64,000 nt of DNA from an uncultured bacterium (GTDB lineage Bacteria; Hydrothermota; UBA3072; B12-G15): assembly GCA_964596115.1 (NCBI GenBank), contig CAZQRW010000003.1, forward strand, positions 5,883 through 69,882, in the 5' to 3' direction. Below, piece by piece: positions 7,123 to 57,275 of this stretch. Under the pieces are notes generated by a model that saw nothing but the letters and a program-made list of their open reading frames with translations, did no database searches and was not told the DNA's origin. The translations under genes and the position numbers were made by a program. Each line of letters begins with the position of its first letter. The first letter of the stretch is position 1.

Positions 7123-7141
7123 CTGTAAAAAGGAGGAAGGT

Positions 7142-15814: not shown

Positions 15815-15886
<72 letters not shown>

Positions 15887-40564: not shown

Positions 40565-41029
40565 GTGAGTATGAAAATAGAATTTATACGAAGGCTTATT
40601 AAAGTTGTAGAGGAGAGTAATATAAATGAAATTGAAATTTCCAGATTTGGAACAAGGATAAAAATAAGTAAGAATGGCAGTGTGATTGAAACCGAGGTAG
40701 CCAAATCTCCTGGAAAACAAAAGAAAACTAAGGTGCAAGAAAATATTGAAGAGGTAAGGGAAGAGGAACGAAAAGAACAGAGAAACCTTACTCCAATAAA
40801 ATCCCCTATGGTGGGGACATTTTACAGGGCACCTGCACCGAATGCACCGCCTTTTGTTGAGGTTGGTGATATGGTTAAGCCAGGTCAAACAGTATGTATA
40901 ATAGAAGCCATGAAATTGATGAATGAAATTACTGCAGATATAGCTGGTAGGGTTGTTGAGATATTGGTCAAGAATGAAGAGCCTGTAGAGTACGGTCAAG
41001 AATTATTCCTAATTGAACCTGTTTCATAA
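40565..41029 (+). CDS. accB: acetyl-CoA carboxylase biotin carboxyl carrier protein
   Basis: 154 aa with the biotinyl-lysine motif IEAMKLMNEI and a Pro/Ala-rich linker. Confidence 0.9.
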   Translation: MSMKIEFIRRLIKVVEESNINEIEISRFGTRIKISKNGSVIETEVAKSPGKQKKTKVQENIEEVREEERKEQRNLTPIKSPMVGTFYRAPAPNAPPFVEVGDMVKPGQTVCIIEAMKLMNEITADIAGRVVEILVKNEEPVEYGQELFLIEPVS

Positions 41030-41040
41030 GGAGGAATACC

Positions 41041-42126
41041 ATGGAACTAAAAAATCTCCTTGCAAAAATGATAAAGTTGGAGGCTTCAGACTTACATCTA
41101 AAGGTTGGTAGTCCTCCTGTAATGAGAATAAATGGTAGCCTTACTGCACTTAATATGGAGCCTTTGTCTAATGATGATTTAAGGAAAGCCGCTGCCTCAT
41201 TGATGACAAAGGAACAGCAGGAAAAATTTTCAAAACAGAAAGAGGCAGATTTTGCTATTGGGTTAAAGGGTCTTGCAAGATTCAGAGTAAATATATACGT
41301 TCAGAGAGGGAGTATTGCAATCGCAATGAGGATAATACCTCACCAGATAAAAACAATTGAAGAATTGAATCTCCCAGGTGTATTGAGAGATTTTTCAATG
41401 AGACCGAGGGGTCTTGTTCTCGCAACTGGTACAACAGGTTCTGGAAAATCAACAACACTTGCAGCAATGATAGAACATATTAATTTGAATGTGAATAAAC
41501 ATATTATAACAGTTGAGGATCCTATTGAATATCTTTTTAAGGATAAAAAATCTATTATTTCTCAAAGAGAGGTCGGAAGTGATACAAACTCTTTTGGCAA
41601 TTCCCTTCGCTATATTCTAAGACAAGATCCTGACGTTATAATGATCGGTGAAATCAGGGATGTTGAAACAATGGATATTGCTCTAAAGGCTGCTGATACA
41701 GGTCATCTTGTATTTTCTACGCTTCATACACTAAATGCTGCTGAGACAATAAACAGAATAATAAGTTTTTATCCACCCTATCAACAGCAACATATAAGAG
41801 TGCTTCTTTCAGCTACCCTTGTTGGCGTTATATCACTCAGACTTCTTCCAACTAAAGATGGCAAGGGAAGAATGCCTGCAACTGAGATACTTGTTGCAAC
41901 ACCCCTGATAAGGGAATACCTTCTGGATGAAGTTAAGACATTAAAAATTCCAGACGCAATTGTAGAGGGTGACCAGTATGGTATGCATTCTTTTGACCAG
42001 TCTATCATGGAGTATTATAAACGTGGTGTAATCGATTTAGAAACTGCCATTGAAAATGTAACAAATCCTGATGAATTTAAGATGAAATTAAAGGGTATAG
42101 AAACGATGCAAGCGGGGTGGGGATAG
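41041..42126 (+). CDS. pilT: type IV pilus twitching-motility ATPase PilT family
   Basis: 361 aa. Walker A GTTGSGKSTT, Asp box HIITVEDPIEY, Walker B/His box VIMIGEIRD, and a PilT N-terminal domain. Confidence 0.9.
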   Translation: MELKNLLAKMIKLEASDLHLKVGSPPVMRINGSLTALNMEPLSNDDLRKAAASLMTKEQQEKFSKQKEADFAIGLKGLARFRVNIYVQRGSIAIAMRIIPHQIKTIEELNLPGVLRDFSMRPRGLVLATGTTGSGKSTTLAAMIEHINLNVNKHIITVEDPIEYLFKDKKSIISQREVGSDTNSFGNSLRYILRQDPDVIMIGEIRDVETMDIALKAADTGHLVFSTLHTLNAAETINRIISFYPPYQQQHIRVLLSATLVGVISLRLLPTKDGKGRMPATEILVATPLIREYLLDEVKTLKIPDAIVEGDQYGMHSFDQSIMEYYKRGVIDLETAIENVTNPDEFKMKLKGIETMQAGWG

Positions 42127-43472
42127 AATTAATGATAAAGAAACTTCTTGTTGCAAATAGAGGAGAGATTGCTGTTAGAATTATAAGAGCAGCCAAAGAG
42201 CTCGGAATTGCCACTGTCGCCGTATTTTCCGAAGGCGACGAAAATGCCCTACATGTATATCTCGCAGATGAGTCCATCAGAATCGGCCCAGCTCAACCAG
42301 CCAGGAGTTATCTAAATATACCAATGATTATTGCAGCTGCAGAAGTAACAGGTGCAGATGCTATTCATCCCGGGTACGGTTTCCTTGCAGAAAACCCTGT
42401 ATTTGCTGATACTTGTATTACAAGTGGTTTTATTTTTGTTGGACCATCTCCTGCATCAATTTCAAAGATGGGAGATAAGTCAGAGGCGAAACGAACTATG
42501 AAAAATGCAGGTGTACCTGTTATTCCAGGTAGTGATGGTCCAGTATTAAAAGTAGAAAAAGCCCTTGAGATAGCTGATTCTACGGGATATCCAGTAATCA
42601 TTAAAGCTGTAAGTGGGGGAGGAGGTAGGGGTATGAGAATTGCACGAGATGCAAAGGAGTTATCTTCTTCCTTCAGAATGGCTATGTCGGAAGCAGAGGC
42701 ATCTTTCGGTGATGGAAGACTCTATATTGAAAAATATATTGAAAATCCCAGGCATATTGAGGTACAAATTTTAGGAGATAAAGATGGGAATATCATTCAT
42801 TTAGGCGAGAGAGAGTGTTCTATTCAAAGAAGACACCAAAAGCTACTGGAAGAGTCACCCTCTACGATTGTTACGCCAGAGACGAGGAAGAAAATGGGTA
42901 ACATAGCGATACAGGGAGCGAAATCTATAGGTTATTATTCAGCTGGAACTATGGAATTTATTATGGATAAAAAGAAAAAATTTTATTTTATGGAAATGAA
43001 TACAAGGATTCAAGTTGAACACCCTGTTACTGAACTGGTTACAGGAATCGATATTGTGAAGGAGCAAATTAAGATTGCGATGGGAGAGAAGATTACTTAT
43101 AGACAGAAAGACGTAAAATTTAATGGTCATTCAATAGAGGTTAGGATTAACGCAGAAAACCCTTCGTCTGGTTTTGTACCTAGCGTTGGTAAAATAGAAA
43201 ATCTGCATATTCCAGGTGGACCTGGAATCAGGGTGGATACCCATATTTATCAGGGATATCAAATCCCTTCATTTTATGACTCTCTTTTAATGAAATTAGT
43301 TTCGTATGGTATTGATAGAAATGAATCAATCAATCGAATGAGAAGGGCTTTAAATGAGATTATAATTGAAGGTGTTGATACTACTATACCACTTCACAAA
43401 AAGATAATTGATAGTGAGGGTTTTCAAAAAGGAGAAATAGATACTGAATATATCAAGAAATTGGGATATTAA
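42117..43472 (+). CDS. accC: acetyl-CoA carboxylase biotin carboxylase subunit
   Basis: 451 aa ATP-grasp protein (KKLLVANRGEIAVRIIRAAKELGI...), with biotin carboxylase C-terminal motifs. Confidence 0.95.
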   Translation: MGIELMIKKLLVANRGEIAVRIIRAAKELGIATVAVFSEGDENALHVYLADESIRIGPAQPARSYLNIPMIIAAAEVTGADAIHPGYGFLAENPVFADTCITSGFIFVGPSPASISKMGDKSEAKRTMKNAGVPVIPGSDGPVLKVEKALEIADSTGYPVIIKAVSGGGGRGMRIARDAKELSSSFRMAMSEAEASFGDGRLYIEKYIENPRHIEVQILGDKDGNIIHLGERECSIQRRHQKLLEESPSTIVTPETRKKMGNIAIQGAKSIGYYSAGTMEFIMDKKKKFYFMEMNTRIQVEHPVTELVTGIDIVKEQIKIAMGEKITYRQKDVKFNGHSIEVRINAENPSSGFVPSVGKIENLHIPGGPGIRVDTHIYQGYQIPSFYDSLLMKLVSYGIDRNESINRMRRALNEIIIEGVDTTIPLHKKIIDSEGFQKGEIDTEYIKKLGY

Positions 43473-43473
43473 G

Positions 43474-44076
43474 ATTATTGGGATTACTGATAGGAAATAT
43501 CTTGGAGAAAACATAGAGAAAGGTGTAGAACTCGCCCTTAAGGGTGGAATAAAAGCTATCCAATACAGGGAGAAAGAGATGGATGATAGATATAAATACA
43601 AAAAGGCTTTGGTGTTAAGAGAATTATGTGATAATTATGGTGCTATCTTAATTGTAAATGACAGGCCTGATATAGCAATTCTCTCCCATTCACATGGTGT
43701 TCATCTTGGGCAGAGTGATTTACCTGTTGATAAAGTGAGAGGAATATTCCAGGGTTTAATTGGGGTTAGTGTTGGGAATAAAAAAGAAGCGGAAGAGGCT
43801 GAGGTAAAGGGTGCAGATTATTTAGGGTTAGGAGCGTTTTATCATAGTAATACAAAACAAGATATAGCAGAGGTAGAGGATAAGGTTGTTAAAGAAATAA
43901 AAAAAAGTGTGAAAATCCCTGTCATTGCCATTGGGGGCATCAATATTAGTAATGTTAGAGCTGTAATGAAGAAGGGTGTGGATGGGATTGCTCTTAGTGA
44001 AGGATTATTTACAGGAGATATTTTTGTAAATGCCTCAAGATTGGTTGATTTGGTAAATAAATATGTCTCTCATTAA
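43474..44076 (+). CDS. thiE: thiamine-phosphate synthase (start codon uncertain)
   Basis: ThiE motifs ALKGGIKAIQYREKE, LIVNDRPDIA, HLGQSDLP, IAIGGIN. The conserved N-terminal ~35 aa lie upstream of the first ATG (43579) with no canonical start in frame. Initiation is probably at ATT (43474/43477), abutting the accC stop. Confidence 0.7.
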   Translation: MIGITDRKYLGENIEKGVELALKGGIKAIQYREKEMDDRYKYKKALVLRELCDNYGAILIVNDRPDIAILSHSHGVHLGQSDLPVDKVRGIFQGLIGVSVGNKKEAEEAEVKGADYLGLGAFYHSNTKQDIAEVEDKVVKEIKKSVKIPVIAIGGINISNVRAVMKKGVDGIALSEGLFTGDIFVNASRLVDLVNKYVSH

Positions 44077-44659
44077 GTACGCGTCAAAAGAAATTACATG
44101 TAAAATTGTATACTACGGGCCGGGTAGAGCTGGTAAGACTACAAATTTAAAATTTCTATTTACGAAGATTCCTGTGGATAAAAAAAGCGACCTCGTATCC
44201 CTTGCAACTGAATCAGATAGAACACTATTTTTTGATTTTTTACCCATAGAACTTGGTAATTTTCGTGGTTTCAGAACGAGATTTCAGCTTTATACAGTTC
44301 CTGGCCAGGTATATTACGATTCGACAAGAAGACTTGTACTTCAGGGTGCAGATGGCATTGTTTTCGTTGCCGATTCTTCAGATTCAAGATTTGAGGATAA
44401 TATCGTTAGTATGGAAAATATGATTGAAAATATGGAAAAAAACGGATTGTCAGTGGATGAAGTCCCGATTGTTATACAATACAATAAAAGAGATTTACCC
44501 GATGTAGTTTCGGTATCACAACTTGAAAAGTCATTGAATCCAAACGGATTTAAGTATTTTGAGTCAATAGCAATTAAAGGTGAAGGCGTAGCATCCACAT
44601 TCAAAGAAATTGGGATGCAGGTTTTAAAATCAATAAAAATGAAATTGGGGCTTGAATGA
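44063..44659 (+). CDS. mglA: MglA-type Ras-like small GTPase (gliding/polarity regulator)
   Basis: 198 aa, near-colinear with Myxococcus MglA. P-loop KIVYYGPGRAGKTTN, switch TESDRTLFFDFLP, YTVPGQVYYDS, and NKRDL for guanine specificity. Confidence 0.85.
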   Translation: MSLIKYASKEITCKIVYYGPGRAGKTTNLKFLFTKIPVDKKSDLVSLATESDRTLFFDFLPIELGNFRGFRTRFQLYTVPGQVYYDSTRRLVLQGADGIVFVADSSDSRFEDNIVSMENMIENMEKNGLSVDEVPIVIQYNKRDLPDVVSVSQLEKSLNPNGFKYFESIAIKGEGVASTFKEIGMQVLKSIKMKLGLE

Positions 44660-46371
44660 TCATTTCGAATTTTAATAAGGAAGCAGCAAAGGCAATTCAG
44701 TTTGCCTGTGAAAGAAAAAGTGAATATAATCCTATATACATATATGGCCAAAGGGGTAGTGGTAAGACTGAGATAATTAAAGAGATATTCAATAAATTTA
44801 AAGGCAAAAAAATGATTTTGACTCCTTCGGAATTCTGTGAAAAAAGCATTGAGGATATTAATAGAAATGATCTGCTTATTATTGAGGATATTGGTTTAAT
44901 AAGACCCAATAAAGAGAACGAAAAAAAACTTATTTCCTTGATGAATAAATTTTTTGAAGAAGGTAGACAGATCGTATTAACGGGTGTATATGAGCCTGAT
45001 AAGCTTCCTTTTAATGAAGAGATCGTGAACAAAATAAAAAGGGGTATAACCCTGAAGATATACCCACTTGATGACGAAGATAAAAAATTATTATTTAGAA
45101 ATTATGCCCCAGATTTAGATGAAGGTATGCAGCAGAACATTCTTAAAAGCGAGGTTTCAACTGTCAAGGAATTTTTTGGATATCTCAATAATATCAGGAC
45201 TTATAAGAAGAAAGAAGGGGAGAAACCACTTACGCAATCCAATGTATTTAAGGAATTTATAAAAGAGATTGAAAATGATATGCCAGAAACCCTCAAGAAG
45301 GGTTCAGTAGAGGAAGAGCTGAGGGAAGAGTATAGAGCCAAATTGTATGTTTGGAAAATGAAGGGTTTTCGATGTGATAGAGTTGAATCAGTAATTGATG
45401 GTAATATTGAGGATATAACCAGGGAGTTTGTAACATTTACAACAAATGTGCAGAGGTTGATTGAGTTACAGAGAAGGTATGGAAGTATTGATCAATCTAT
45501 TATTCCGAAAGAAGAAAAAAGCCAGATAGAGGAGCGTCTTTTTAACCCTGAAGACATTCCCGAACTGGAAGAGACAATAGCACGATATGAATTGCTTTCA
45601 GAAATAAGAAGGAATGTTGCCAAATATATTAATTGGGATAAATCTTTTGATGATTATGTGGTTAGTGAACCCAATAAAGAGGCATACGATTTTGTAATTG
45701 ACATCATAGATAATCCACGACAGAAGGGGGTATACTTAATTGAGGGTTGTATGGGCTGTGGAAAAACAGAGATTGTAAACCTTCTTGCACAGGGGCTTTT
45801 CAAAATGTATCCTGATGTTACCTTTTTGTTTTACAAATTTGAATATTTGATTTCAAGAGATTATCCGGAGTATATTAGCGAAAACATTGATGTGATACTT
45901 ATAGATGATGTTGATATGTTTATAAATAAATCTGGGTGGGAGAAATTTGAATCTATTATCAATAGATGTAGTAATAGGTTGTGTATCTTTACTCTTACAA
46001 AGTATCCCAGAGCTGAAAAATTTAATGAATATGTTGATAACTCACGTATAGTTAAGATCCGCAAACCAGATAGACGCATTCTAAAAAAAATGTTAGAGGA
46101 CGTTGAAAATATCAAAGGAATTGATTTAACGCTCGAGACAGAAAAAGACATATTGGATAAAGCAAAAGGTGGATTTTATGACCTTGAGGCACTGGTATCT
46201 TTACAACTAAGTAAGGGGTTGAGTAGGGAAGAGACGACGGATTTAAGAGAAAAATCTATAAAAAACAGACCCGAAGCAATAGATAAACTCAAAAGGAGGG
46301 GGCATGAATTGATAGATGGCATAGCGCAGGAGTTTCAGGACGATGATTTCAGATTGGGTAAGGAGATATAA
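44656..46371 (+). CDS. protein with two tandem DnaA/Hda-like AAA+ modules
   Basis: 571 aa. Module 1: YNPIYIYGQRGSGKTEI (Walker A), LLIIEDIG (Walker B), GRQIVLTGVYEPDKLPF..IKRGITLKIYPLDDEDK (sensor/box VII-like region as in DnaA domain III/Hda). Module 2: GVYLIEGCMGCGKTEI, VILIDDVDMF, NRLCIFTLTKYP...IVKIRKPDRR. Neither module has a DnaA domain I or IV. Confidence 0.6.
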   Translation: MIISNFNKEAAKAIQFACERKSEYNPIYIYGQRGSGKTEIIKEIFNKFKGKKMILTPSEFCEKSIEDINRNDLLIIEDIGLIRPNKENEKKLISLMNKFFEEGRQIVLTGVYEPDKLPFNEEIVNKIKRGITLKIYPLDDEDKKLLFRNYAPDLDEGMQQNILKSEVSTVKEFFGYLNNIRTYKKKEGEKPLTQSNVFKEFIKEIENDMPETLKKGSVEEELREEYRAKLYVWKMKGFRCDRVESVIDGNIEDITREFVTFTTNVQRLIELQRRYGSIDQSIIPKEEKSQIEERLFNPEDIPELEETIARYELLSEIRRNVAKYINWDKSFDDYVVSEPNKEAYDFVIDIIDNPRQKGVYLIEGCMGCGKTEIVNLLAQGLFKMYPDVTFLFYKFEYLISRDYPEYISENIDVILIDDVDMFINKSGWEKFESIINRCSNRLCIFTLTKYPRAEKFNEYVDNSRIVKIRKPDRRILKKMLEDVENIKGIDLTLETEKDILDKAKGGFYDLEALVSLQLSKGLSREETTDLREKSIKNRPEAIDKLKRRGHELIDGIAQEFQDDDFRLGKEI

Positions 46372-47969
46372 TGGCAATAAAAGGATCACTTAGAGAAGCA
46401 TCCTTACCTGATGTGGTACAGATGCTGGCTTTAGGAAGAAAAACTGGTATTCTGAGTGTTACCAATGGTGAAATGCTTGCACATATTTACTTTGAAGAAG
46501 GCAAATTAACAGGGGCTGATATTGTCAATAGGGAAAATAAAGTAGGGGAGCTGCTGGTAAAGGCTGGTAAGATAACCCCTGAACAGCTTGACAGTGCACT
46601 GGAGAAACAAAAAAGTAGACGAGGTGTACCCATTGGGGAGATATTATATGAAATGGGGTTAATTGATGAGAAGACTCTTCAGGACGCATTAATAGGACAG
46701 ATGAAAGAGACACTTTTTAATTTATTTTCCTGGAAAGACGGTCTTTTTAATTTCGAACCAGGCGAAAGTAAGGTTAAGAAAATAATTTCTATCAGCATAA
46801 AGGCAGAAGACTTACTTCTTGAAGCAGCAAGGCTCGCAGACGAGATTGGTGTTGTGGACCTACCTCCAGCAGATAGTATTCTTCAGAAGATGGGCGGTGT
46901 AAATATTGAAGAACTCGATGAATTTGAAAGACAAGTATTTGAAGTCATTGATAATAAAAAAACAATGGAAGAAATCCTTTCCTCTATAAGTATGGATGAA
47001 TTTGAGACGATGAAAGCAATTGGAAGATTAAAAAAGAAAGGTGTTATTACATCACGCAAGTTTACCAATATTGCGCCTGAGAAGGCGGCTTCAAAAATTG
47101 CTGAACATGAGAATCTTGGATTGGCGTTTCTACAGATGCATATGTATGAAGAAGCTGAGAGAGAATTCAAGAGGATTTTAGATTTTCGTCCCGATGATTA
47201 CAGGGCAATGTTTTATCTTTCAATTATAAGGTATAAATTAGAAGATTACAAGGAAGCGGCAAGTCTTATAGAAAAAATTAAAGATAGTCAATTTGAACAT
47301 CCATATATTTACTCTAACCTTGCAGTTTATTATGAAAAACTTAACGATTTAAACAAGGCATTAACTTTAGTTGATCACGGGCTTCAGAGATGGAATTCAA
47401 ATTTAGAACTTTTGTTAAATAGAGGTATAATTTTGATGAAAATGGGTCGATACGATGATGCTATCAATGCATTTAACAATCTTTTGAAGGTTAATAATGA
47501 AAATACATATGCATATTTTTTTATAGCTCTAATAAATATACTCCAAAATAAGATTGAGCATGCATTAAATTTTTTACTTGATGGATTACGCTACAAACCA
47601 AAGTTTCCTGAGTACTATAATAATATTGCCCGTGTATACGAAGAAACTGCTGAGTTTGAAAAAGCAGAGGAGATGTATAAAAGGGGACTCGAAATAGATC
47701 CTGCGTATCAACTTATCCGACTTAATCTTGCTAATTTCTATTATAAAAATGGTTACTATTCATTAGCAGAGGAAGAATATCTTAAGCTTATTTCATCTGA
47801 TTATAAAAATGGGGATATATTTGCGAAACTTGGGAATATTTATTTTAAAAAGGGAAACAAAAAAGAGGCACTGCTTTATTGGGAAGAATCGCTTAAATTC
47901 AATCCAGATGATTTGACTGTATTAAAGAATATAAAAATTGTAAAACAGGATTATGGATTGGGCATTTGA
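46371..47969 (+). CDS. PATAN (DUF4388) domain protein with C-terminal TPR repeats
   Basis: 532 aa. The N-terminus GSLREASLPDVVQMLALGRKTGILSVTNGEMLAHIYFEEGKLTGADI has an alpha-helical insert (GELLVKAGKITPEQLDSALEKQ...GEILYEMGLIDEKTLQDAL) typical of PATAN. Then at least 6 TPR-like repeats. Confidence 0.65.
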   Translation: MAIKGSLREASLPDVVQMLALGRKTGILSVTNGEMLAHIYFEEGKLTGADIVNRENKVGELLVKAGKITPEQLDSALEKQKSRRGVPIGEILYEMGLIDEKTLQDALIGQMKETLFNLFSWKDGLFNFEPGESKVKKIISISIKAEDLLLEAARLADEIGVVDLPPADSILQKMGGVNIEELDEFERQVFEVIDNKKTMEEILSSISMDEFETMKAIGRLKKKGVITSRKFTNIAPEKAASKIAEHENLGLAFLQMHMYEEAEREFKRILDFRPDDYRAMFYLSIIRYKLEDYKEAASLIEKIKDSQFEHPYIYSNLAVYYEKLNDLNKALTLVDHGLQRWNSNLELLLNRGIILMKMGRYDDAINAFNNLLKVNNENTYAYFFIALINILQNKIEHALNFLLDGLRYKPKFPEYYNNIARVYEETAEFEKAEEMYKRGLEIDPAYQLIRLNLANFYYKNGYYSLAEEEYLKLISSDYKNGDIFAKLGNIYFKKGNKKEALLYWEESLKFNPDDLTVLKNIKIVKQDYGLGI

Positions 47970-48720
47970 GTATCTGAAAAGAACTATTAAAGAAATATTG
48001 AATTTTGAACCGGAGAATTATAAGGTTAGGCCATTTATAAGGAGGATAAGGTCAAGGATGAGAAGTGTAGGTATAATGGAATATTCTAAATATGCTGATT
48101 TCTTAAAAAATCATCCAGAGGAAGTAATTAAACTCAAAGAGACATTGACCATTAATGTTTCGAAATTTTTCAGGAATCCATCTGTATTTTCCATTATAGA
48201 GAATGAGATTTTTAAAAGACTTTCTTCTCCTATCACAATATGGAGTGCCGGTTGCGCAACAGGTGAGGAACCTTATACTCTTTCAATGATCTTGTTAGAA
48301 TCTGGAAAGACAGGTAAGATCATAGCTACAGATGTTGATGCATCAGCAATAAAAAAAGCACAGGATGGTGTATATGAAAAGACATCCCTCTCGGAAATGT
48401 CTCCCTATATCATTTCTCGGCATTTTAGTAAAGAAAATGGTAAGTATAGAGTAAATGATAATGTCAAAAAACTTGTTGAATTTAGAATTCTTGATCTGAA
48501 GGAGCTTGAAGAATTTAAAATGATTTTTGATGTCATTGTCTGCAGAAATGTATTAATATATCTTTCAAAGGAGTTCCAAGGGGAGCTCATTAAGGGTTTT
48601 GCTAATCATTTAAAGGAGAGAGGATTTCTTATTCTCGGTATGGTGGAGGGAATGTTCGGTATTGGCGAGGATTTCTTCGTTCCATATAATTTAAGGGAGA
48701 GAATCTACGTAAAAAAATGA
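47953..48720 (+). CDS. cheR: chemotaxis protein methyltransferase CheR
   Basis: 255 aa with an N-terminal helical domain and a SAM-binding domain (IWSAGCATGEEPYTLSMIL, VIATDVD). Confidence 0.9.
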   Translation: MDWAFEYLKRTIKEILNFEPENYKVRPFIRRIRSRMRSVGIMEYSKYADFLKNHPEEVIKLKETLTINVSKFFRNPSVFSIIENEIFKRLSSPITIWSAGCATGEEPYTLSMILLESGKTGKIIATDVDASAIKKAQDGVYEKTSLSEMSPYIISRHFSKENGKYRVNDNVKKLVEFRILDLKELEEFKMIFDVIVCRNVLIYLSKEFQGELIKGFANHLKERGFLILGMVEGMFGIGEDFFVPYNLRERIYVKK

Positions 48721-49193
48721 AAAAGTTATTTGTAAAGGTAGGAGATATGAAGGCTGCCAAAGATTCATCCCTGTTAATTACACTTGGGCTTGGCTCATGC
48801 GTTGCAGTAACAATTTATGAACCAGAAAAAAAGATTGGGGCGTTACTCCATTTTCTTTTGCCAGAGGGAGATAGAAACGGAAGTTCACCATTTAAATACG
48901 GAGATAAAGGCATAGAAATGATGGTTAAAGCTTTGGAAAATTTAGGTGCACAGAGGAACAAAATGGTCGCTAAACTATTCGGGGGGGCATTAATGTTTGC
49001 CCAATTGATAAGAACACCGGAGAATTCTATAGGGGTGAGAAATTTAAAGAAGGCAAGGGAAGTTCTTAATAGATTAAATATACCAATTGTTGGCGAGGAT
49101 ACAAACGGTGATTACGGAAGAAGTATTGAGTTTAACCTGAAAGACGGATCAGTTCGTGTTTCCTCGTATAAAGCTGGGGTTAAAGTTATATGA
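48717..49193 (+). CDS. cheD: chemoreceptor glutamine deamidase CheD
   Basis: 158 aa with the conserved GLGSCVAV and catalytic Cys/His region. Confidence 0.85.
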   Translation: MKKLFVKVGDMKAAKDSSLLITLGLGSCVAVTIYEPEKKIGALLHFLLPEGDRNGSSPFKYGDKGIEMMVKALENLGAQRNKMVAKLFGGALMFAQLIRTPENSIGVRNLKKAREVLNRLNIPIVGEDTNGDYGRSIEFNLKDGSVRVSSYKAGVKVI

Positions 49194-50209
49194 TAAGGGT
49201 GCTCGTAGTAGACGATTCGCTATTTATAAGAAGTCTATTAACAGACATACTTGAATCGGAAAAAGATATTGATGTAATCGATACAGCTAAGGATGGGATT
49301 GAGGCAATTTCAAAGACCCTAAACTTTAGGCCAGATGTTATAACAATGGATGTAGAAATGCCTCGTTTAAATGGTATTAAGACCGTTGAAAAAATAATGA
49401 AGGAAAGACCCACGCCAATTATTATGATAAGTGCATACACCAAGAGAAATGCGGAGATAACCCTGGAAGCACTTTCAAAAGGTGCTATTGATTTTATAAC
49501 CAAACCTGGTGGACCTGTAAGTTCGGATATAGGGAAATTGAAGAACGATATAATTACAAAGGTTAAAATAGCCTATAGGGCAAATATTACTTCATTAAAT
49601 ATAAAACCTACCAGGGATGTAGTACCTGGTTCAGAGAAAAGAACATTTAAAATTGTAGTAATTGCTTCTTCCACTGGTGGCCCAAAGGCACTCTCTCACA
49701 TAATCCCAAGATTACCAAAAGATTTTGCAGGTTCCATTCTCGTTATTCAGCATATGCCAATGGGCTTTACAGGACCACTTGCTGAAAGGCTTGACAGGGT
49801 TTCAAATGTTAAGGTTCTTGAGGGGAAAAATGGAACAAATGTCAGACCTGGAACAGTGTACATTGCTCCCGCAGGTTTTCATATGAAGGTTGATTCGAAA
49901 TTAACTATCTTTTTGACAAAGGATCCTCCTCTGCATGGAGTAAGACCATCTGCAGATGTAACTATGATGGATGTTGCCAGACTTATGCAAAAGAATTCAA
50001 TTGGCGTAATTCTGACAGGAATGGGTAGAGATGGTAGTATGGGTGTTAAGCAGATTAAAAAAATGGGTGGTAAAGTAATCGTTCAGGATAAAGAGACTTC
50101 TACTGTTTATGGAATGCCGAAATCTGCACTTTCCACTATTACTCCTGATATCATTTCCCCTCTTGATAATATTGCAGAGGAAGTGATCAGGTTTATTGAA
50201 AATGATTGA
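49190..50209 (+). CDS. cheB: chemotaxis response-regulator protein-glutamate methylesterase CheB
   Basis: 339 aa. REC domain (VLVVDDS..., DVITMDVEMP) plus a C-terminal methylesterase (SSTGGP, HMPMGFTG). Confidence 0.9.
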   Translation: MIRVLVVDDSLFIRSLLTDILESEKDIDVIDTAKDGIEAISKTLNFRPDVITMDVEMPRLNGIKTVEKIMKERPTPIIMISAYTKRNAEITLEALSKGAIDFITKPGGPVSSDIGKLKNDIITKVKIAYRANITSLNIKPTRDVVPGSEKRTFKIVVIASSTGGPKALSHIIPRLPKDFAGSILVIQHMPMGFTGPLAERLDRVSNVKVLEGKNGTNVRPGTVYIAPAGFHMKVDSKLTIFLTKDPPLHGVRPSADVTMMDVARLMQKNSIGVILTGMGRDGSMGVKQIKKMGGKVIVQDKETSTVYGMPKSALSTITPDIISPLDNIAEEVIRFIEND

Positions 50210-50966
50210 AGAAATAGAAAACAGGATAAAAGAAATTGAAGATAAAATAAGAAAAAAGAAGGATTTTACTATTGAACTTAAATTACTTAAAAAAGAATTT
50301 TTAAAATACAAGGCTTATATATTTTCTGTCGAAAATAGAATACAGGATATCGAGGCAAAACTAGCCCCTGCCAGGATGATGGGAAAGTTGAGGTCTGCTG
50401 ATGTTGATATTCAAACTCTTCTGGATAGTGCCTGGAATAATATAGTAAATGGTAATTATAAGGAAGCCGTTAAAGTGTTAAAAAAAGCACGAGCCCTTTC
50501 TCCAAATAATGAAAAAGTTCATTTATATCTGGGTTGGGCATTTACTTTACTTGGGAAGTATAATGAGGCAATGGCTGCCTATCAAAATGTGCTAAAAAAA
50601 GATCCCTTTAATCAACTTGCTTTGACAAATATAGGATTTATTAATTACAAATTAGGAATATATGGAGAGGCAATCGAAAGATTATCAAAAATAATAAAGG
50701 AAAATAAAGATAGACTGGCTGTATTGTATGCAAATTTTTATCTTGGCATAATATATTATGAAAGAGAAATGTATTTTGATGCCATTGAATTTTTTAATAA
50801 GGCAATAAAGGCTGGACCAAATCTTTTTGAAGCATACTATTATCTTGGAAAGGCATATATGAAGTCAGGAAATAAGAAATTAGGTGATGAGGTCTGGGAT
50901 AAGTTGCTGTCTTTAAAGACAACGAATATATGGTCTCAGAAGATCGAGGAGGAAAGAAATGGTTGA
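50196..50966 (+). CDS. TPR-repeat protein
   Basis: 256 aa with an N-terminal coiled coil, then TPR repeats (AWNNIVNGNYKEAVKVLKKARALSPNN...). Confidence 0.7.
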   Translation: MKMIEEIENRIKEIEDKIRKKKDFTIELKLLKKEFLKYKAYIFSVENRIQDIEAKLAPARMMGKLRSADVDIQTLLDSAWNNIVNGNYKEAVKVLKKARALSPNNEKVHLYLGWAFTLLGKYNEAMAAYQNVLKKDPFNQLALTNIGFINYKLGIYGEAIERLSKIIKENKDRLAVLYANFYLGIIYYEREMYFDAIEFFNKAIKAGPNLFEAYYYLGKAYMKSGNKKLGDEVWDKLLSLKTTNIWSQKIEEERNG

Positions 50967-51771
50967 AGAATATTGGGGTTTTAAGCTTAAGCCCTTTCTG
51001 AATACGCCTGATACTCAATTTTTATTCAGAAGCGAGTGTTTTAATGAAGGGTATGCCAGAATTTTATACAATATTAAAGAAATCAGGGGAGGACTGACAT
51101 TGATTACCGGAGAAATTGGCAGTGGTAAAACATACCTTGCCTATGCTTTGAAAGAAGATCTTGGCAAAGAAGGGGAACCAGTGGTTCTTCTAACAAACCC
51201 CACTTTTTCTCCTACTGGCTTTTTGAAAACTATAATTGAACAATTTGGCATTGGAGAAAACGAAAAGATCTCGAGATACAGGGTGAAACTTTTAAAGAAG
51301 ATAGAGAATATTCTTAATGAAATCAAGAGAGAGGGTAAAAATGCAGTTATTATGATTGATGAAGCCCAGGTGTTGAGGAAAGCCTTATTAGAGGAGATAA
51401 GATTACTGCTTAACTTTGAAGATAAAGATGGTAAACTTTTGCAAATCGTAATGCTAGGGCAGCCCGAAATGGCAAAAAAAATCAAAAAAATGCCTCAGGT
51501 TAAACAAAGAATAAATGTTAGGTACCATATTGGACCTCTCAGTAAGGAGGAAACTATAGAATATATTTCTCATAGATTAAATGTTGCAGGTGGTGAGATA
51601 AATATATTTAAAAAAGAAGCAATTGATAGAATATTTAAATATTCTAAAGGAATACCCAGGGTTATAAACAATATTGCACAAAATGCATTATTTGTTGGTA
51701 TGAGTATGGAGGCTAAAAATATAAATGGAGAAATAATAGATGCAGTAGCAGTAGATTTGAGGATATTATAG
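50959..51771 (+). CDS. ExeA/GspA/MshM-family AAA+ ATPase
   Basis: 270 aa. PFLNTPDTQFLFRSECFNEGYARILYNIKE, Walker A GEIGSGKT, Walker B VIMIDEAQ, and LGQPEM...RYHIGPL...Y, as in ExeA-type secretion/pilus assembly ATPases. Confidence 0.75.
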   Translation: MVEEYWGFKLKPFLNTPDTQFLFRSECFNEGYARILYNIKEIRGGLTLITGEIGSGKTYLAYALKEDLGKEGEPVVLLTNPTFSPTGFLKTIIEQFGIGENEKISRYRVKLLKKIENILNEIKREGKNAVIMIDEAQVLRKALLEEIRLLLNFEDKDGKLLQIVMLGQPEMAKKIKKMPQVKQRINVRYHIGPLSKEETIEYISHRLNVAGGEINIFKKEAIDRIFKYSKGIPRVINNIAQNALFVGMSMEAKNINGEIIDAVAVDLRIL

Positions 51772-51772
51772 A

Positions 51773-52465
51773 ATGAAAAAGAGAAAAAAGATTTCCTTCC
51801 AAAAAATGCTTGAATTAAAGGAAAAATCAGAAAAGAAGATAAATAAATCAATAAAGAGTAAAACGGTTAAGGCAGAGGCTGCAAATATCAAGGAAGAACC
51901 AAAGCAACCAGCAAAGCTATCAGTACAGAAACAGCACAAAAAAATAGAAAAGGAGCAGAAAATAGTTGAGGATACAGGTTTACCGTTATTAGAACCAAAT
52001 CAGATAGATAAAGGTAAAGCCATTGTGTTAGATGAAATTTTGGTAGTAAAGATAAAAAACGAATTTTATGGACTTCCGGTTGAGTATGTCACTGAAATAT
52101 CAGAGCTTAAGGCCGTCCCAACACCTGATATGCCTGATTTCATCGCAGGTATAGTTGAAGTAAGAGAGAAGGTTATTCCAGTTATTGATCTTGCGGCAAG
52201 ATTTGGTCTTGGGAAAATAGAAGGTAAAGTTTTACCTGTAGTTATAATTAATGTAGGAGATGAATCAATCGGTTTTCAAATCGAGAAGATCATTGAAATA
52301 GAAAAAATGAAAGACAGGGTAATAATGGCTTTACCAGATAACTTTAAGGAGAGATATCTTTTAGGAGCAATTGAATATAAAGGCAGGGTTTTAGCGATTA
52401 TTGACCCCGGTTCCCTTCTAAGAGAAAGTGAATATAAGGGATTAAAGAAGATTAGAAATGAATAG
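51773..52465 (+). CDS. cheW: CheW-like coupling protein with Lys-rich N-terminal extension
   Basis: The C-terminal ~140 aa form a CheW domain ([44 protein letters not shown]). The N-terminal ~70 aa are K/E-rich and low-complexity. Confidence 0.8.
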
Positions 52466-54140
52466 CATATCAAAAAAATATGCACTTTATACAGTTTTAC
52501 CAGGAATTGTAGGCACTATTCCTGTTGAGATTGTGGGTATAAGGTTTTATGCAGGTTTACCAGCAGAAAGACTACTTCCCCTATGCCTTTTAGTTTTTAT
52601 CATTGCATCATCCTTATCCGTTATTTATTATTTTTTTCACTATTACAGGATGGAAAGGATTATTTCGGAAGATAATGCGAATGGATTGTTCCAGAGTCCA
52701 ATCATTTCTGGAATTCATACATTGATAAATTTTGCTATTTTGGCCCCAATAATTTTTGTTATATATAATCACTTTAATGAACTTATTAGCAATACACAAA
52801 TTGGTAAGGTGTTTTTGGTCAATATTTTTGCAGGTTTGATTGTATCGGGGATTGTATACCCCCTTGGGGAATTGATAATAATGCCATATCTATACAAATA
52901 TGAACGAAAATTTAAAGGGATATCTTTATTTGTAAAATTATGCATTGTTCTATTAATTGGGTTAATCTTTTCGTGGTTTACTGGTGTACTATTTATCCGA
53001 TATAATCCATCGATATTTCTAATTTTATTGCCCATTTTTCTGACGCTTCTAACAATATTCAGAGTTCTTAAACCAATGAGGCTTTTTAATGAAGGCTTAG
53101 ACCAATTTATCTCTGATAAACCCAATCTAAGGTTGAAGATGAAAGTAAAGACAGGCGATGAATTCGAAGATCTGTCTGAGAAGGTAAATAAGTTTGTAGA
53201 AATAGTATCAGAGATTGTTAGTAGAATTAAAGAAATCTCAGAAAAAATGATGAAATCTTCAGAATCAATTTCTACCTTATGTAAGAAATTAGCATCTTCT
53301 ATCAAGGAAATTATCAGCAGTATTAATAAACTCAACAATGAAAATATTAATTCTCACCAATATGTAAAGCATGTTAACGTAGAAGCTAGAAACGTCACTT
53401 CAATGGCAGAGAATATTGAATCTCAAATGAAAATGCTAACAAAAGTTACACAGGATTCAGATAAAAGAGCAGTTGAAGGAGAAAAAAAGGCAGAAGAGGT
53501 TCTTTCGAGGATAAAAGAGAATATCAACTCTATAAAGTCAACAGAGGAGAGAATGAAGGACCTTATTGCAACTGTTCAAGAGGTTAACAGTTTTGCAGAT
53601 ATTTTATCAGAAGTGACAGAGGATACAGATCTCCTTTCATTGAATGCTTCAGTAGAAGCTGCCCGTGCTGGGGAATACGGTAAAGGATTTGCAATAATTG
53701 CAGAAGAAATAAGAGGGCTCTCTAACCAATCAAAGGAATATCTTGATAGAGTTGTTTCAGTCTTAGATAGAGTAACCACTGCTTTTGAAAACTTCAGGAA
53801 TACACTTTCAGAAGGTATTAGCAAGATTTCAGGAAGTGTGGAATCAATGGATAATATTAAGGGTGCATTAAGTGAGATATCAGAAAATGTTACACTTGGT
53901 ACCAATATGACAAATCAGGTATCTGATACTATCAAAGAGGAAATAAATAGTATATCAAAGTTGTATAGTGTAATAAGCAATGTTTCTGAGACCTTTGGGG
54001 CAACTACTTCTGCTATAGAGGGAATTTCTTCTTCTTTAGAAGAACAAATGGCATCGATGGAGGAACTTAAAGGTATGACGGAAAACATGCTAAAAGTTTC
54101 CCAAGAGATGAAATTATCTATTGAGAGGTTCGAGGTTTGA
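52458..54140 (+). CDS. methyl-accepting chemotaxis protein
   Basis: 560 aa with multiple N-terminal TM helices, a HAMP-like region, and a C-terminal MCP signalling domain with the highly conserved [30 protein letters not shown]. Confidence 0.85.
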
Positions 54141-54565
54141 AATATTTGATTTTTAATTTAGGTGAGAATACATTTGGAATTTCCATAGATAAAGTTAAAG
54201 AGCTTGTAAAATTTAAAAGGTTGCGTAGGTTGTCGCAAATGCCTAAGTGGCTTTCGGGAATAGTTTCTTATAGAAAAGAGAATTATGGATATGTAAGATT
54301 GTGGGAGATTCTTAAGACCCCCTCCCCTGAAAAGGAAATAATTCTTTTTTTAACAGGGGTTGATCTGGTAAGCTTTGGTATTGGTAATTTGGCAGGGATC
54401 AAAGACATTTCAGTAAAGGGGGTATCACACTCTTTTTTAAGGCTAAAGTATATAGAAGGGATTGGTAATTTAAATGGTAATATTGTATTAATTATTTCTC
54501 CTGTAAATCTTATTGGATCAAGGAAAATAAATACGATTAAACAGTTACTTAAGGGGAGAAAATGA
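54137..54565 (+). CDS. cheW: CheW-like coupling protein
   Basis: 142 aa single CheW domain ([20 protein letters not shown]...). Confidence 0.75.
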
Positions 54566-55770
54566 GGAAGAAAGCATCTGTTATTGCAATCGGAAATGAA
54601 ATTTTAATGGGGGAAATAACAGATACAAACTCTACTTTTATTTCAAGAAAATTGTTTGAAAAAGGTATATTGACAGTCGTCAGATTGCAGATACCAGATA
54701 AAAGAGAAGATATTGAGCAGGCCTTGAGATTCTGTATGGAAAAAAGTAATATTATTATTACCACAGGTGGTTTGGGCCCAACGAATGATGATATCACAAA
54801 GAAGACAATTGCCAATTTTCTTGGCAGAGATCTTGTACTTGTGGATGATTTAAAAAATTGGGTAGAGGGTTTTTTTCAACGCAGAGGAATTCCAATGTCA
54901 GATGTGAATCTATCTCAGGCAGAGATTATAGAAGGTTCAAGATATATAATGAATCCTATTGGCACTGCTCCCGCCATTATCATAAATGTAGGCAAGAAAA
55001 AGATTGCAATGTTTCCAGGTGTACCATCAGAGTTATATGTAATGTTTGATAAATTTCTTGAAGGAATAGAGGGGAGTATACCAGTTACTACATTGCTCAG
55101 GACAACTGGAATAGCAGAATCGGACATATATAACGAGGTGAAAAAGGATGCACCCCAAAAGATACAAAAGATTATATATTATTATCCTACCTGGAGAGGA
55201 GTTGATTTAAGAATAGTGAGTTATGATATTGATTTACAAAAAGATGCAGTTAATTTTTTAAAGCATAAATTCGGCAACTATATTTATTCGTTAGAAGAAA
55301 AAGAGATTGAAGAAATTGTTGGCATTATGTTGAGGAATAAAGGCATTTCAATTTCTGTTGCTGAATCCTGCACGGGTGGTCTGGTTGCAGATTATATAAC
55401 TGACGTTCCTGGCAGCTCGGATTATTTTATTGGAGGAGTGGTTACATACTCAAATAAATCCAAGATAAACATCCTTGGTGTAAGGCAAAATGATATCGAC
55501 AGATTTGGTGCCGTAAGTGAAATAGTCGCAAGGGAGATGGCTGAAGGTGTTAAAAGTTTATTTAATGCTGATATTGGGGTTTCAACAACGGGTATTGCGG
55601 GCCCTACGGGTGAGAGACCGGGGAAGCCATTGGGACTTGTTTATATGGCAGTATCTTACAAAAATGAGACCATTGTTAAAAAACAAATTTTTCTTTCGCC
55701 ACGAAAAAGGGTAAAGGTAGCAGCCGCAACCTTCCTCCTTAATATGGTCAGGGAGGTAATAAAGGGATGA
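54562..55770 (+). CDS. cinA: CinA-family competence/damage-inducible protein (MoCF-like N-domain plus PncC deamidase C-domain)
   Basis: 402 aa. VIAIGNEILMGEITDTN, TTGGLGPTNDD, and the C-terminal AESCTGGL. Confidence 0.9.
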   Translation: MRKKASVIAIGNEILMGEITDTNSTFISRKLFEKGILTVVRLQIPDKREDIEQALRFCMEKSNIIITTGGLGPTNDDITKKTIANFLGRDLVLVDDLKNWVEGFFQRRGIPMSDVNLSQAEIIEGSRYIMNPIGTAPAIIINVGKKKIAMFPGVPSELYVMFDKFLEGIEGSIPVTTLLRTTGIAESDIYNEVKKDAPQKIQKIIYYYPTWRGVDLRIVSYDIDLQKDAVNFLKHKFGNYIYSLEEKEIEEIVGIMLRNKGISISVAESCTGGLVADYITDVPGSSDYFIGGVVTYSNKSKINILGVRQNDIDRFGAVSEIVAREMAEGVKSLFNADIGVSTTGIAGPTGERPGKPLGLVYMAVSYKNETIVKKQIFLSPRKRVKVAAATFLLNMVREVIKG

Positions 55771-56294
55771 GATTATTTTTTGGTATTGATATACCTTTAG
55801 ATGCAAAAGAGGCAATTTTTCAACTAACACATTTATTCTCAGCAAACTCAGTAAGGGTAAAATGGGTAAGAAAGGAAAACCTACATATTACCCTTCGATT
55901 TTTGGGAGATAACGATCCCCACAAAGTGTTAGAAATTATAGGGAATTCTTGCCCTGAAGAACCTTTTTATATAAGTCTAAAATCTATTGGAGCATTTCCT
56001 AATCGTTTAAAGCCGAGAATTTTATGGGTTGGCGTTGAGACAGGTGAAGAAAAGGTAAGATCTATCTATAAATGGCTTGATGAAAGATTAAATTCTCTTA
56101 AGCTGAAAAAGGAGAATAATTTTCTTCCTCATATTACCTTTGGGAGAGTAAAGCAGGGGAGGCTTAAAATCCCTCCTTTGGATTTTGAGTATCCTGAGTT
56201 TAAGATTGATAGGTTTTACCTGTTTAGTTCGGTTTTAAAAATAGGGGGACCGGAATACAGTAAAATTAGCGAAATTAAACTGGGAGGGAGATGA
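55767..56294 (+). CDS. thpR: RNA 2',3'-cyclic phosphodiesterase (2H family)
   Basis: 175 aa with two HxT/Sx motifs (HITLRFLG and HITFGR). Confidence 0.85.
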   Translation: MRLFFGIDIPLDAKEAIFQLTHLFSANSVRVKWVRKENLHITLRFLGDNDPHKVLEIIGNSCPEEPFYISLKSIGAFPNRLKPRILWVGVETGEEKVRSIYKWLDERLNSLKLKKENNFLPHITFGRVKQGRLKIPPLDFEYPEFKIDRFYLFSSVLKIGGPEYSKISEIKLGGR

Positions 56295-57271
56295 TGAGTT
56301 TTGGTCAATATCTTGGTATAGAATACGTTTTAACTATGTTTATTATGCTTGTTTATGCGGCATCATTAAAAAAATCGGGTTTATTTGATATTTTCTTTCA
56401 AGAAGTTTTTAAGAGGACAGGACCTAAGACTGGGTTTTTAATCGTTTTGACAATTATATATTTTTTCTCCCCTCTTTTTTTAATACCTGTTTTAATAGGT
56501 AGCATACAGGATATTAGTATGAGGTATAAAAATAAGAATATAGCTCTTTCTATCTTATTGTCTGCCTTAACATTTGGTAGTGTCATTTTGCCTTTCGGTA
56601 ATCCCAGAAATTTTTATTATATTATTTATTATAAGAGCGTTAATGGGACTCCGCTCTTTTTTTCAGAGTTTTTAAGAATTATGTTCCCTATTTGGATTAT
56701 GATGTACTTTGTAATTTTATTTACCGCAATCATTGTTTTAAAACCAGAGCTTAATGGTGAAATTAGTTTAAGAAGCAAAAAGTTTAGATACAAAGAAATA
56801 ATTTTTGTAAGTTTTCTTCTTATATTTATTATTGCATATGCGATGGGGAAGATGAATTTTCTTGGATTCTTTTTTGTGACTGGATTTTTCATTTTTACAT
56901 TTGTTGGGAAGGATACATTAAAGAAGGTTGAATGGTGGATGTTAATTCCTATCTCACTATCGATACCATTAGGAATACTTATTTTTACACATCCAGTGAA
57001 AATGACAGGTATTTTTACATATCTTGTCACATTTTTCTCTTCAGGGATAATCACTTCTGATGTTTCTACTTTTATTTTTCCATATCCCCTTGCGAAACCA
57101 ATTAATTTCCTGTATGGTATATCGGCAGGTGCTACGTTTGGTATATTAGGTTCTAGTTTAAGTATTTATTTATGGAAGAAGGGACGGGTGAAGCCCGATA
57201 TGAGGACTTTATTTATTATTTCAGCACTGGCTTTTTTGGTGGGCTTAATTATAATTATTATATGGAGGTGA
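56291..57271 (+). CDS. polytopic membrane protein of unknown function
   Basis: 326 aa with about 9-10 predicted TM helices. No diagnostic motif recognised. Confidence 0.5.
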
Positions 57272-57275
57272 AAGT

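Follow-up and report, generated by a model that had tools for sequence, protein, structure and literature searches.

Gene content and organization of the mglA-che locus

The window analyzed here, a stretch of 64,000 nucleotides (nt) from an uncultured bacterium of the Hydrothermota, assigned here to candidate division WOR-3 (GenBank assembly GCA_964596115.1, contig CAZQRW010000003.1, positions 5,883 to 69,882), contains eleven consecutive plus-strand genes in which mglA, encoding a small GTPase, stands at the head of a series of chemosensory genes. The string opens with mglA itself (44063-44659), whose product matches the Arf and Ras families in Pfam and MglA in phmmer searches against the PDB. 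It continues with a gene for a 571-amino-acid (aa) tandem DnaA-like AAA+ protein, here called AAA2x (44656-46371; Bac_DnaA matching in two stretches), and with a gene for PATAN-TPR (46371-47969), a protein that joins a PATAN (DUF4388) domain (PF14332, E = 1.2e-33, residues 4-158) to tetratricopeptide repeats (TPR) matching multiple families. These are followed by cheR (47953-48720; Pfam E = 1.5e-49), cheD (48717-49193; Pfam E = 6.4e-29), cheB (49190-50209; receiver and methylesterase domains in Pfam), and a gene for a TPR protein with an N-terminal coiled coil and matches to multiple TPR families (50196-50966). The last four genes encode AAA_22, a P-loop protein resembling ExeA and PEP-CTERM-associated ATPases (50959-51771; Pfam E = 4.4e-22; TIGR03015), a first CheW with an 85-aa Lys-rich N-terminal extension (51773-52465; CheW E = 2.3e-26), a methyl-accepting chemotaxis protein (MCP) (52458-54140; MCPsignal E = 4.4e-25), and a second CheW (54137-54565; CheW E = 2.7e-16). 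All eleven open reading frames (ORFs) were recovered by Pfam, NCBIfam, and PDB searches at the coordinates and with the domains assigned to them in the initial annotation. The ORFs scanned with Pfam were the long ones picked as likely genes, nearly all of at least 110 aa in the window.

Junctions within the string are tight, with overlaps of 1, 4, 4, 4, 4, 8, 8, 14, and 17 nt; the overlaps of 1 to 17 nt noted at the outset were thus seen at every junction except that between AAA_22 and the first cheW, where a 1-nt gap occurs. The eleven-gene block is real, but its ends do not lie at 44063 and 54565: on the upstream side, a thiE-like gene reaches 14 nt into mglA, and on the downstream side, cinA and the last cheW share 4 nt. 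Closely packed and co-directional, the string extends from accB (40565) to recX (58845), a total of 20 genes with no gap larger than 11 nt. A plus-strand scan of this string found no terminator-like site of note, and promoter-like and terminator-like counts were at chance level, so that operon limits were not set by these scans. Since similar overlaps are present in other co-directional blocks of the window, gene coupling by itself is not above background. What makes the block nonrandom is not coupling but synteny conserved across phyla.

Conservation of the module across phyla

Relatives of the module were sought in a scan of one genome per species, and a metagenome scan added 21 loci; loci were mapped by tblastn and by called-gene tables, and the 10 kb flanking the module to the left and to the right were compared. 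In the one-genome-per-species scan, true AAA2x relatives occurred in candidate division WOR-3, "Ca. Stahlbacteria," TA06, and Gemmatimonadaceae. About 25 distinct loci from WOR-3, Stahlbacteria, and TA06 share the order mglA-AAA2x-PATAN-TPR-cheR-cheD-cheB-TPR, and identity to the window proteins ranges from 26 to 37% for AAA2x up to 58 to 74% for MglA.

The module takes four arrangements. In the full WOR-3 variant, found in the window and in six other loci (L001, L002, L004, L007, L088, and L089), the order is accB-pilT-accC-thiE-mglA-AAA2x-PATAN-TPR-cheR-cheD-cheB-TPR-AAA_22-cheW-MCP-cheW-cinA-ligT. Short variants include one (L102) that reads efp-pilT-mglA-AAA2x-PATAN-TPR-cheR-cheD-cheB-TPR-cheW-pgpA-cinA-ligT-recA-recX, a TA06 locus in which the string stops after the TPR gene (L096), one with a divergent MCP gene upstream (L112), and one without mglA (L003). 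A search with the window MCP as query added two further arrangements, which make up the split variant: MCP-cheW-pgpA-cinA-recA, without the mglA side and without a kinase (L108 and L109). The TPR protein is a member of the conserved core, present in both full and short forms, and AAA_22 belongs to an optional tail: AAA_22-cheW-MCP-cheW is absent or split off in L008/L096, L011/L102, L003, L112, and L108.

The fourth arrangement is that of Gemmatimonadota, where the mglA-AAA2x-PATAN-TPR triad was found in three loci. Two of these (L013 and L111) encode cheW-cheY-cheA-cheC, a large TPR protein, PATAN, TPR/Roadblock, and Roadblock proteins, mglB, mglA, AAA2x, PATAN-TPR, and cheR-cheD-cheB, and L013 additionally carries AAA_22-cheW-cheW-TPR after cheR-cheD-cheB. 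The third, in a complete genome (L110), reads receiver ... PATAN-TPR/Roadblock-Roadblock-mglB-mglA-DnaA-like-PATAN-TPR and is without che enzymes. All three have two or three Roadblock/MglB genes directly upstream of mglA; in L013, the region 8343-9203 encodes both a Roadblock protein and MglB. The triad mglA-AAA2x-PATAN-TPR is thus conserved across phyla, being present in WOR-3, TA06, and Gemmatimonadota, and it is joined repeatedly to cheR-cheD-cheB. The co-occurrence of MglA with the DnaA-like AAA+ and PATAN-TPR proteins, which had been put forward from the window only, is borne out by these loci.

MglA

Window MglA is a true MglA rather than a generic Ras-like GTPase. In phmmer searches against the PDB, it matched the Thermus thermophilus (3T12) and Myxococcus xanthus (5YMX) proteins with E values of 2.6e-68 and 4.8e-68, respectively, compared with 3.8e-8 for its best non-MglA match, a Rab, and NCBI gives the same protein the name [quoted passage not shown] Group-1 MglA proteins are recognized by an Arg finger in switch I, Thr for Asp in G3 (TVPGQ, with the catalytic Gln), and NKxD. 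The intrinsic Arg of switch I (DRTLFFDF), TVPGQ, and NKRD were all kept in an alignment of 17 of 17 MglA orthologues, so that both the close similarity to characterized MglA and the motif set by which Wuichet and Sogaard-Andersen (2014) defined group 1 are found here. A coupled MglB (Roadblock/LC7) gene within four genes of mglA was found neither among the scanned window ORFs nor in the WOR-3/TA06 loci; an MglB neighbor is typical of the MglA family but not obligatory, since orphan MglAs exist. With the Gly that corresponds to Ras G12 retained, along with every catalytic residue, WOR-3 MglA looks, by its motifs, hydrolysis competent, in the manner of the M. xanthus and T. thermophilus proteins.

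The P-loop of window MglA is GPGRAGKTT (residues 19-27, window 44117-44143), and GPGR[SA]GKTT is present in every module-associated MglA from WOR-3, TA06, and Gemmatimonadota. Leu replaces this Arg in T. thermophilus MglA and in canonical 192-aa MglAs of other phyla. In GBP and atlastin GTPases, a catalytic Arg occupies the equivalent P-loop position. In Gemmatimonadota, the P-loop Arg of module MglAs is found together with MglB.

AAA2x, a tandem DnaA-like AAA+ protein

AAA2x is made up of two DnaA/Hda-like AAA+ units (about aa 1-190 and 335-520), with Walker A motifs at residues 34-37 and 364-370, and the best match of both is the DnaA ATPase domain (Bac_DnaA, E = 1.2e-21). Assignment to DnaA itself was rejected, as the protein scored 108 bits against TIGR00362 (equivalog cut-off, 343.9) and had no Bac_DnaA_C match, and so was assignment to Hda (TIGR03420, 85 bits; equivalog cut-off, 194.8). 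With scores below both cut-offs and no DnaA domain IV, this AAA+ protein is not a mis-called DnaA or Hda. Both Walker A motifs and the second Walker B motif are invariant among AAA2x proteins, while the first Walker B acidic pair varies. PATAN-TPR is always the next gene after AAA2x in module loci.

Between the two AAA+ units lies a central helical domain of ~110 aa (aa ~215-330, window 45298-45645) with the motif EELREEYRAKLYVWKMKGF...FTTNVQRLIELQRRYG...LFNPE. This segment, which starts with EELREEY, is the most conserved part of AAA2x, and it had no Pfam match even at E = 1. In an AlphaFold2 model, the predicted local distance difference test (pLDDT) score was 77 overall and 85 to 92 in the central helical segment. 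A fold search with this model returned p97/Cdc48-type double AAA+ rings as the best PDB match (TM, 0.27), which confirms only that the model has two AAA+ modules. The central domain, with its WK.KGF..D..E..I.G motif, also occurs as 5 to 11 tandem repeats in the unrelated long proteins P0223, P0231, P0268, and P0274, some of which end in zinc ribbons, and it looks like an undescribed domain family.

AAA2x is rare, with 23 close homologues among 5.8 billion protein clusters and roughly 20 to 40 full-length representatives among 1.84 billion clusters. The slot between lptC-lptA and rpoN is normally that of lptB. In another low-GC lineage, a 607-aa AAA2x-like gene lies in this slot (L099, 8659-13226; also L010, L100, and L101).

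PATAN-TPR, adaptation enzymes, and receptor

PATAN-TPR carries PATAN at its N terminus, as in PatA-type regulators, and its C-terminal half consists of TPR, without a Response_reg match. Within PATAN, an insertion (aa 58-107) matches an MshE-related c-di-GMP-binding motif (NF053729, 54.5 bits; cut-off, 38). The MshEN-type motif is a tandem 24-residue RLGxx(L/I)(L/I)xxG...Q, the leading Arg of which is Lys or Pro in the window protein; in an alignment of 18 sequences, the Arg is present in several PATAN-TPR orthologues. Elsewhere in the window (35948-37582, minus strand), a GAF-GAF-HD_5 protein of the HD-GYP type is a candidate c-di-GMP phosphodiesterase and may bear on this motif.

The adaptation enzymes CheR, CheB, and CheD are all present, with catalytic and receiver residues intact. 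The receiver domain of CheB, which is the only one in the window, keeps its acidic pair, phospho-acceptor Asp (MDVEMP/LDIEMP), Ser, and Lys in 14 of 14 orthologues, including those from loci without MCP or CheW in cis, and the catalytic residues of the esterase are likewise kept in 14 of 14. CheR is without a TPR domain, and TPR proteins flank it; the PATAN-TPR gene overlaps cheR by 17 nt.

AAA_22 aligned over its full length with TIGR03015 (E = 5.8e-64), with a score of 216 bits that is below the cut-off of 324.5. Identity to it is 55 to 63% in the full-variant WOR-3 loci and 41% in the Gemmatimonadaceae locus L013. A second AAA_22, 39% identical to that of the module, is paired with a 604-aa TPR protein about 5 to 10 kb past the right end of the window (L113).

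No periplasmic domain is present in the MCP, whose hydrophobic segments, about six in number, fall within aa 10-208. The tip of its hairpin (EAARAGE) lies at aa 400, with about 22 heptads per arm, a count that we take to be compatible with the 44-heptad class, and it bears one methylation-type motif (EEQMAS, aa 528). A second MCP, cytoplasmic, GAF containing, and 685 aa long, is encoded 6 to 8 kb past the right window end beside a 112-aa protein without a family (L113, 1-4978).

Kinase and GTPase-activating protein

Neither CheA (Hpt, H-kinase_dim, and HATPase_c), a stand-alone receiver, nor Robl_LC7 was found by Pfam among the scanned long ORFs, in keeping with the initial annotation that the window is without cheA, stand-alone cheY, and mglB. 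The flanks, 10 kb past each window end, were read on a 123-kb metagenome contig with the same genes. Housekeeping genes occupy the left flank, and the right flank holds the second MCP and the AAA_22-TPR pair; neither includes CheA, CheY, or MglB, so that a cheA-cheY pair and mglB immediately outside the window were also not found within 10 kb on each side. A Roadblock domain hidden in WOR-3 proteins was considered and rejected, because tblastn with three Gemmatimonadota Roadblock/MglB proteins matched only TPR regions, with the limit that Roadblock proteins diverge fast. There are no chemotaxis entries in the supplements of two WOR-3 genome papers, and the accessible WOR-3 literature is silent on chemotaxis.

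These absences describe the locus; as a description of the pathway, "kinase-less" is unproven. CheW and MCP genes are dispersed in this lineage (the split loci L108 and L109, L112, and the second MCP past the window), and absence from the locus therefore says little about the genome. The CheB receiver, with its residues intact in every orthologue aligned, argues that a phosphodonor exists. The further proposal of direct wiring between the receptor and adaptation machinery and MglA, bypassing CheA-CheY and MglB, is not supported: the Gemmatimonadota strings carry cheW-cheY-cheA-cheC as well as Roadblock/MglB, so that AAA2x and PATAN-TPR are additions to, not replacements of, the kinase and the GTPase-activating protein (GAP). 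WOR-3 would then either encode the kinase (and perhaps a GAP) elsewhere or have lost them secondarily, with the first of these somewhat more likely.

Flanking genes

Upstream of mglA and on the same strand, as initially annotated, lies pilT (41041-42126; T2SSE E = 5.3e-47), which at 467 bits is above the TIGR01420 (PilT/PilU) cut-off of 319. Wherever the available sequence of a WOR-3/TA06 locus reaches far enough, pilT precedes mglA, and in the short variants the two genes are direct neighbors. In the window, pilT is flanked by accB (40565-41029) and accC (42117-43472), two genes that are normally adjacent. It sits between them in all full-variant WOR-3 loci, while short variants instead have efp-pilT-mglA.

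Full-variant WOR-3 loci also keep the thiE-like gene (TMP-TENI; 43474-44076, plus strand) ahead of mglA, with which it shares 14 nt in the window. Its listed ATG is at 43579, but the N terminus of ThiE (IIGITDRKYLGENIEKGVELALKGGIKAIQYREKE) runs in frame upstream of it (43474-43578) without ATG, GTG, or TTG, and the reading frame suggests that the gene either starts at an ATT (43474/43477) or has no start codon. A riboswitch (thiamine pyrophosphate or other) in what appeared to be a 106-nt gap before thiE was rejected, as the gap is the in-frame ThiE N terminus; Rfam detected only a tRNA in the window, away from this site.

Downstream of the module, cinA, ligT, a membrane protein gene, recA, and recX (54562-58845, plus strand) are housekeeping genes that are kept as neighbors, and no functional role is claimed for them. 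In WOR-3, (pgpA-)cinA-ligT-recA-recX always follow the module, or MCP-cheW alone (window 54137-58845; L102 and L108). A direct RecA-CheW interaction affecting surface motility is among the findings reported for Acinetobacter (PMC7161683).

Farther away in the window, a DDE transposase gene (14311-15684, minus strand) lies beside a tRNA gene (15815-15886, plus strand) that overlaps the start of a listed DUF218 ORF. Large C25 (gingipain-type) and M14 peptidases are encoded at 21276-24419 and 7112-9676 of the window and at 3404-9533 of L108, and C25 peptidases directly precede the MCP-cheW pair in L108 and L109. On the related contigs L105 and L108, some such peptidases have faint or weak Por_Secre_tail matches, which suggests putative type IX secretion cargo in WOR-3.

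Comparison with known systems

One of the closest known systems is the Frz pathway with MglA, MglB, and RomR in M. xanthus. As there, receptor, CheW, CheR, and CheB are tied to a group-1 MglA with catalytic Arg, TVPGQ, and NKRD, TPR domains accompany the methyltransferase (FrzF joins CheR to TPR; compare PMC3447774), and surface motility driven by pili is the target. The Myxococcus connection is made in trans via FrzE (CheA-CheY), FrzZ/FrzX, and RomR, whereas window MglA is encoded in the same string as the che genes. The window locus differs in having no gene for CheA, CheY, MglB, RomR, or FrzZ, in a membrane-embedded rather than cytoplasmic receptor (FrzCD), and in a CheR without fused TPR, and it adds CheD, the tandem AAA+ protein, PATAN-TPR, and AAA_22. 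In terms of the CheA-based Che classes (F, Tfp, and ACF), MCP and CheW are present, and CheA and its cognate CheY are not at the locus.

The Gemmatimonadota clusters are also among the closest. They share MglA at 54 to 62% identity, GPGR[SA]GKTT, AAA2x, PATAN-TPR, and, in L013 and L111 but not L110, CheR, CheD, and CheB, all in the same order; AAA_22 and CheW also occur in L013. Unlike the window, L013 and L111 encode a kinase, CheY, and CheC, and the clusters have two or three Roadblock/MglB genes and no adjoining pilT. No description of them was found in the literature searched.

Chemosensory steering of type IV pili is also known from the cyanobacterial Tax/Pix systems, with their PatA-type PATAN-receiver proteins, and from Pseudomonas Pil-Chp, and the output domain, PATAN, binds both PilB and PilC. 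In the window protein, TPR take the place of the receiver fused to PATAN, which hence cannot be phosphorylated directly, and the window has no ChpA/PilL kinase and no PilG or PilH. An mglA without an adjoining mglB is shared with the orphan systems of Bdellovibrio bacteriovorus (MglA) and M. xanthus (SofG) (PMC4316618). The WOR-3 protein differs from such orphans in having the G12-equivalent Gly and all catalytic residues, and its Gemmatimonadota relatives have adjoining MglB.

Among ATPases, AAA2x resembles the DnaA/Hda clade in that its modules best match the DnaA ATPase domain, but it has neither DnaA domain I nor domain IV, it combines a tandem arrangement with a novel central domain, and its context is signaling, not replication. 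AAA_22 resembles ExeA/GspA and the XrtA/PEP-CTERM-associated ATPase with its TPR partner PrsT, in that its alignment with TIGR03015 covers the full length and TPR proteins accompany it; unlike them, it has no peptidoglycan-binding or membrane segment, and the window has no exosortase or secretin genes.

A survey of prokaryotic small GTPases (PMC4316618) listed group-1 MglA in Gemmatimonadetes and reported neither che linkage nor an AAA+ partner, and a study of Frz evolution made no mention of such clusters. No description of a linkage among MglA, tandem AAA+, PATAN-TPR, and CheR/CheD/CheB was found in the literature searched, consistent with the suggestion that the module is undescribed. AAA2x and PATAN-TPR are two uncharacterized conserved families and, given their place beside mglA, new candidate MglA partners.

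Proposed function and alternatives

On balance, and with confidence only a little above even, we regard the locus as the WOR-3 version of a conserved MglA-centered signaling module that most likely sets where and when type IV pili extend and retract. It would be a reduced and apparently undescribed variant of a Frz-like chemosensory system combined with MglA polarity, probably steering type IV pili. By homology, the membrane-embedded MCP and two CheW proteins form the receptor layer, CheR, CheB, and CheD adapt the receptor by methylation and deamidation, MglA looks like a hydrolysis-competent polarity switch, and PilT is the pilus retraction motor. PATAN-TPR may be the scaffold that couples MglA to the pilus motor, because in cyanobacterial regulators PATAN by itself is sufficient for output and binds PilB1 and PilC, and because MglA and MglB genes often have PATAN genes as neighbors, a neighborhood called only "occasional" in the small-GTPase survey (PMC4316618); its MshE-like insertion may add a c-di-GMP input. 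AAA2x might use ATP to assemble, remodel, or relocate the complex, with the central helical domain as the likely docking surface. The TPR protein and AAA_22 would be accessory adaptors, and the TPR proteins may act as does the TPR domain of CheR-TPR fusions in nonflagellar pathways (PMC3447774). The module would not be self-sufficient, with its kinase encoded elsewhere or lost, since the Gemmatimonadota string carries CheW-CheY-CheA-CheC and Roadblock/MglB and since the receiver of WOR-3 CheB can still be phosphorylated. The outcome would be Frz-like, in that receptor state would bias the pole defined by MglA and thus pilus-driven surface movement or attachment. In the single WOR-3 bacterium so far in culture, pili are present and microscopy revealed no motility (PMC12285271), which fits pilus-based surface behavior.

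Several observations weigh against this interpretation. Gene order is the sole basis for the roles given to AAA2x, PATAN-TPR, and the TPR protein relative to MglA, the Gemmatimonadota loci have no adjoining pilT, and the Lys/Pro at the first residue of each MshE-like motif makes the predicted c-di-GMP binding uncertain. Co-directional genes are tightly packed throughout this genome, and the string holds the unrelated genes accB, accC, thiE, cinA, and recA. Strikingly, CheA, CheY, CheC, and Roadblock were not found within 10 kb of the module in any of about 25 WOR-3/TA06 loci or in about 84 kb around the module in this organism, an absence that would also fit true loss. The same absence favors a kinase-independent pathway, in which WOR-3 and TA06 would be without any CheA, CheY, or MglB and an MCP-CheW array tuned by CheR, CheB, and CheD would signal via AAA2x, AAA_22, and PATAN-TPR directly to the nucleotide state or location of MglA. 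The gap is made conspicuous by the presence of every other core che gene in the full variant, and two ATPases of unassigned role (AAA2x and AAA_22) lie inside the string. However, the phospho-acceptor site of the CheB receiver is invariant, in Gemmatimonadota, AAA2x and PATAN-TPR are encoded alongside CheA-CheY-CheC and MglB and so are not substitutes for them, and short variants are also without MCP and CheW in cis, which must lie elsewhere, indicating that che genes are dispersed. We consider such a pathway the main alternative but rather unlikely. It is equally doubtful that the WOR-3/TA06 module shed CheA-CheY and MglB and that the receptor array, or CheR, CheD, and CheB acting on AAA2x or TPR proteins, controls MglA via AAA2x and PATAN-TPR. 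If true, this would be a chemosensory-type system with a small GTPase, rather than a phosphorylated response regulator, as its output.

That cheR-cheD-cheB stay with AAA2x-PATAN-TPR-TPR in loci without MCP or CheW in cis (L003 and L008/L096, to which L111 can be added) raises the further idea that these enzymes act on a non-MCP substrate, such as the Glu-rich central domain of AAA2x or the TPR proteins, and that they would be the core of regulation, with the receptor optional. The 17-nt overlap of PATAN-TPR with cheR and the EELREEY at the start of the most conserved AAA2x segment point the same way. This segment is, however, off the MCP methylation consensus, of which the MCP itself has one motif (EEQMAS), and MCPs are nearby in other arrangements (upstream in L112 and in L113). 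We know of no precedent for CheR, CheD, or CheB acting on such a substrate, and the idea appears improbable. Even less probable is that the neighborhood is without function, i.e., a fragment of a chemotaxis gene set beside an unrelated MglA/AAA+/PATAN unit, packed together by the long co-directional strings of a small genome. Although ligT and recX, with the unrelated genes named above, share the string at equally tight junctions, and promoter-like and terminator-like counts are at chance level, WOR-3 classes, TA06, and Gemmatimonadota all retain the order mglA-AAA2x-PATAN-TPR-cheR-cheD-cheB even as the flanks vary (upstream, efp or accBC; downstream, pgpA-cinA, polysaccharide genes, CN_hydrolase, or Peptidase_MA).

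Implications

How MglA receives chemosensory input is only partly understood, even in Myxococcus, whose genes for the two systems lie far from each other. A single string here, and more fully in Gemmatimonadota, holds Che proteins, MglB, and MglA together with AAA2x and PATAN-TPR, which offers these two conserved proteins as candidates for what connects receptor arrays and MglA with the type IV pilus motor in phyla without knowledge of motility control. Considering that the WOR-3 form has neither kinase nor GAP at the locus, it is a natural test of their dispensability, and the module is relevant to research on bacterial polarity and pilus taxis.

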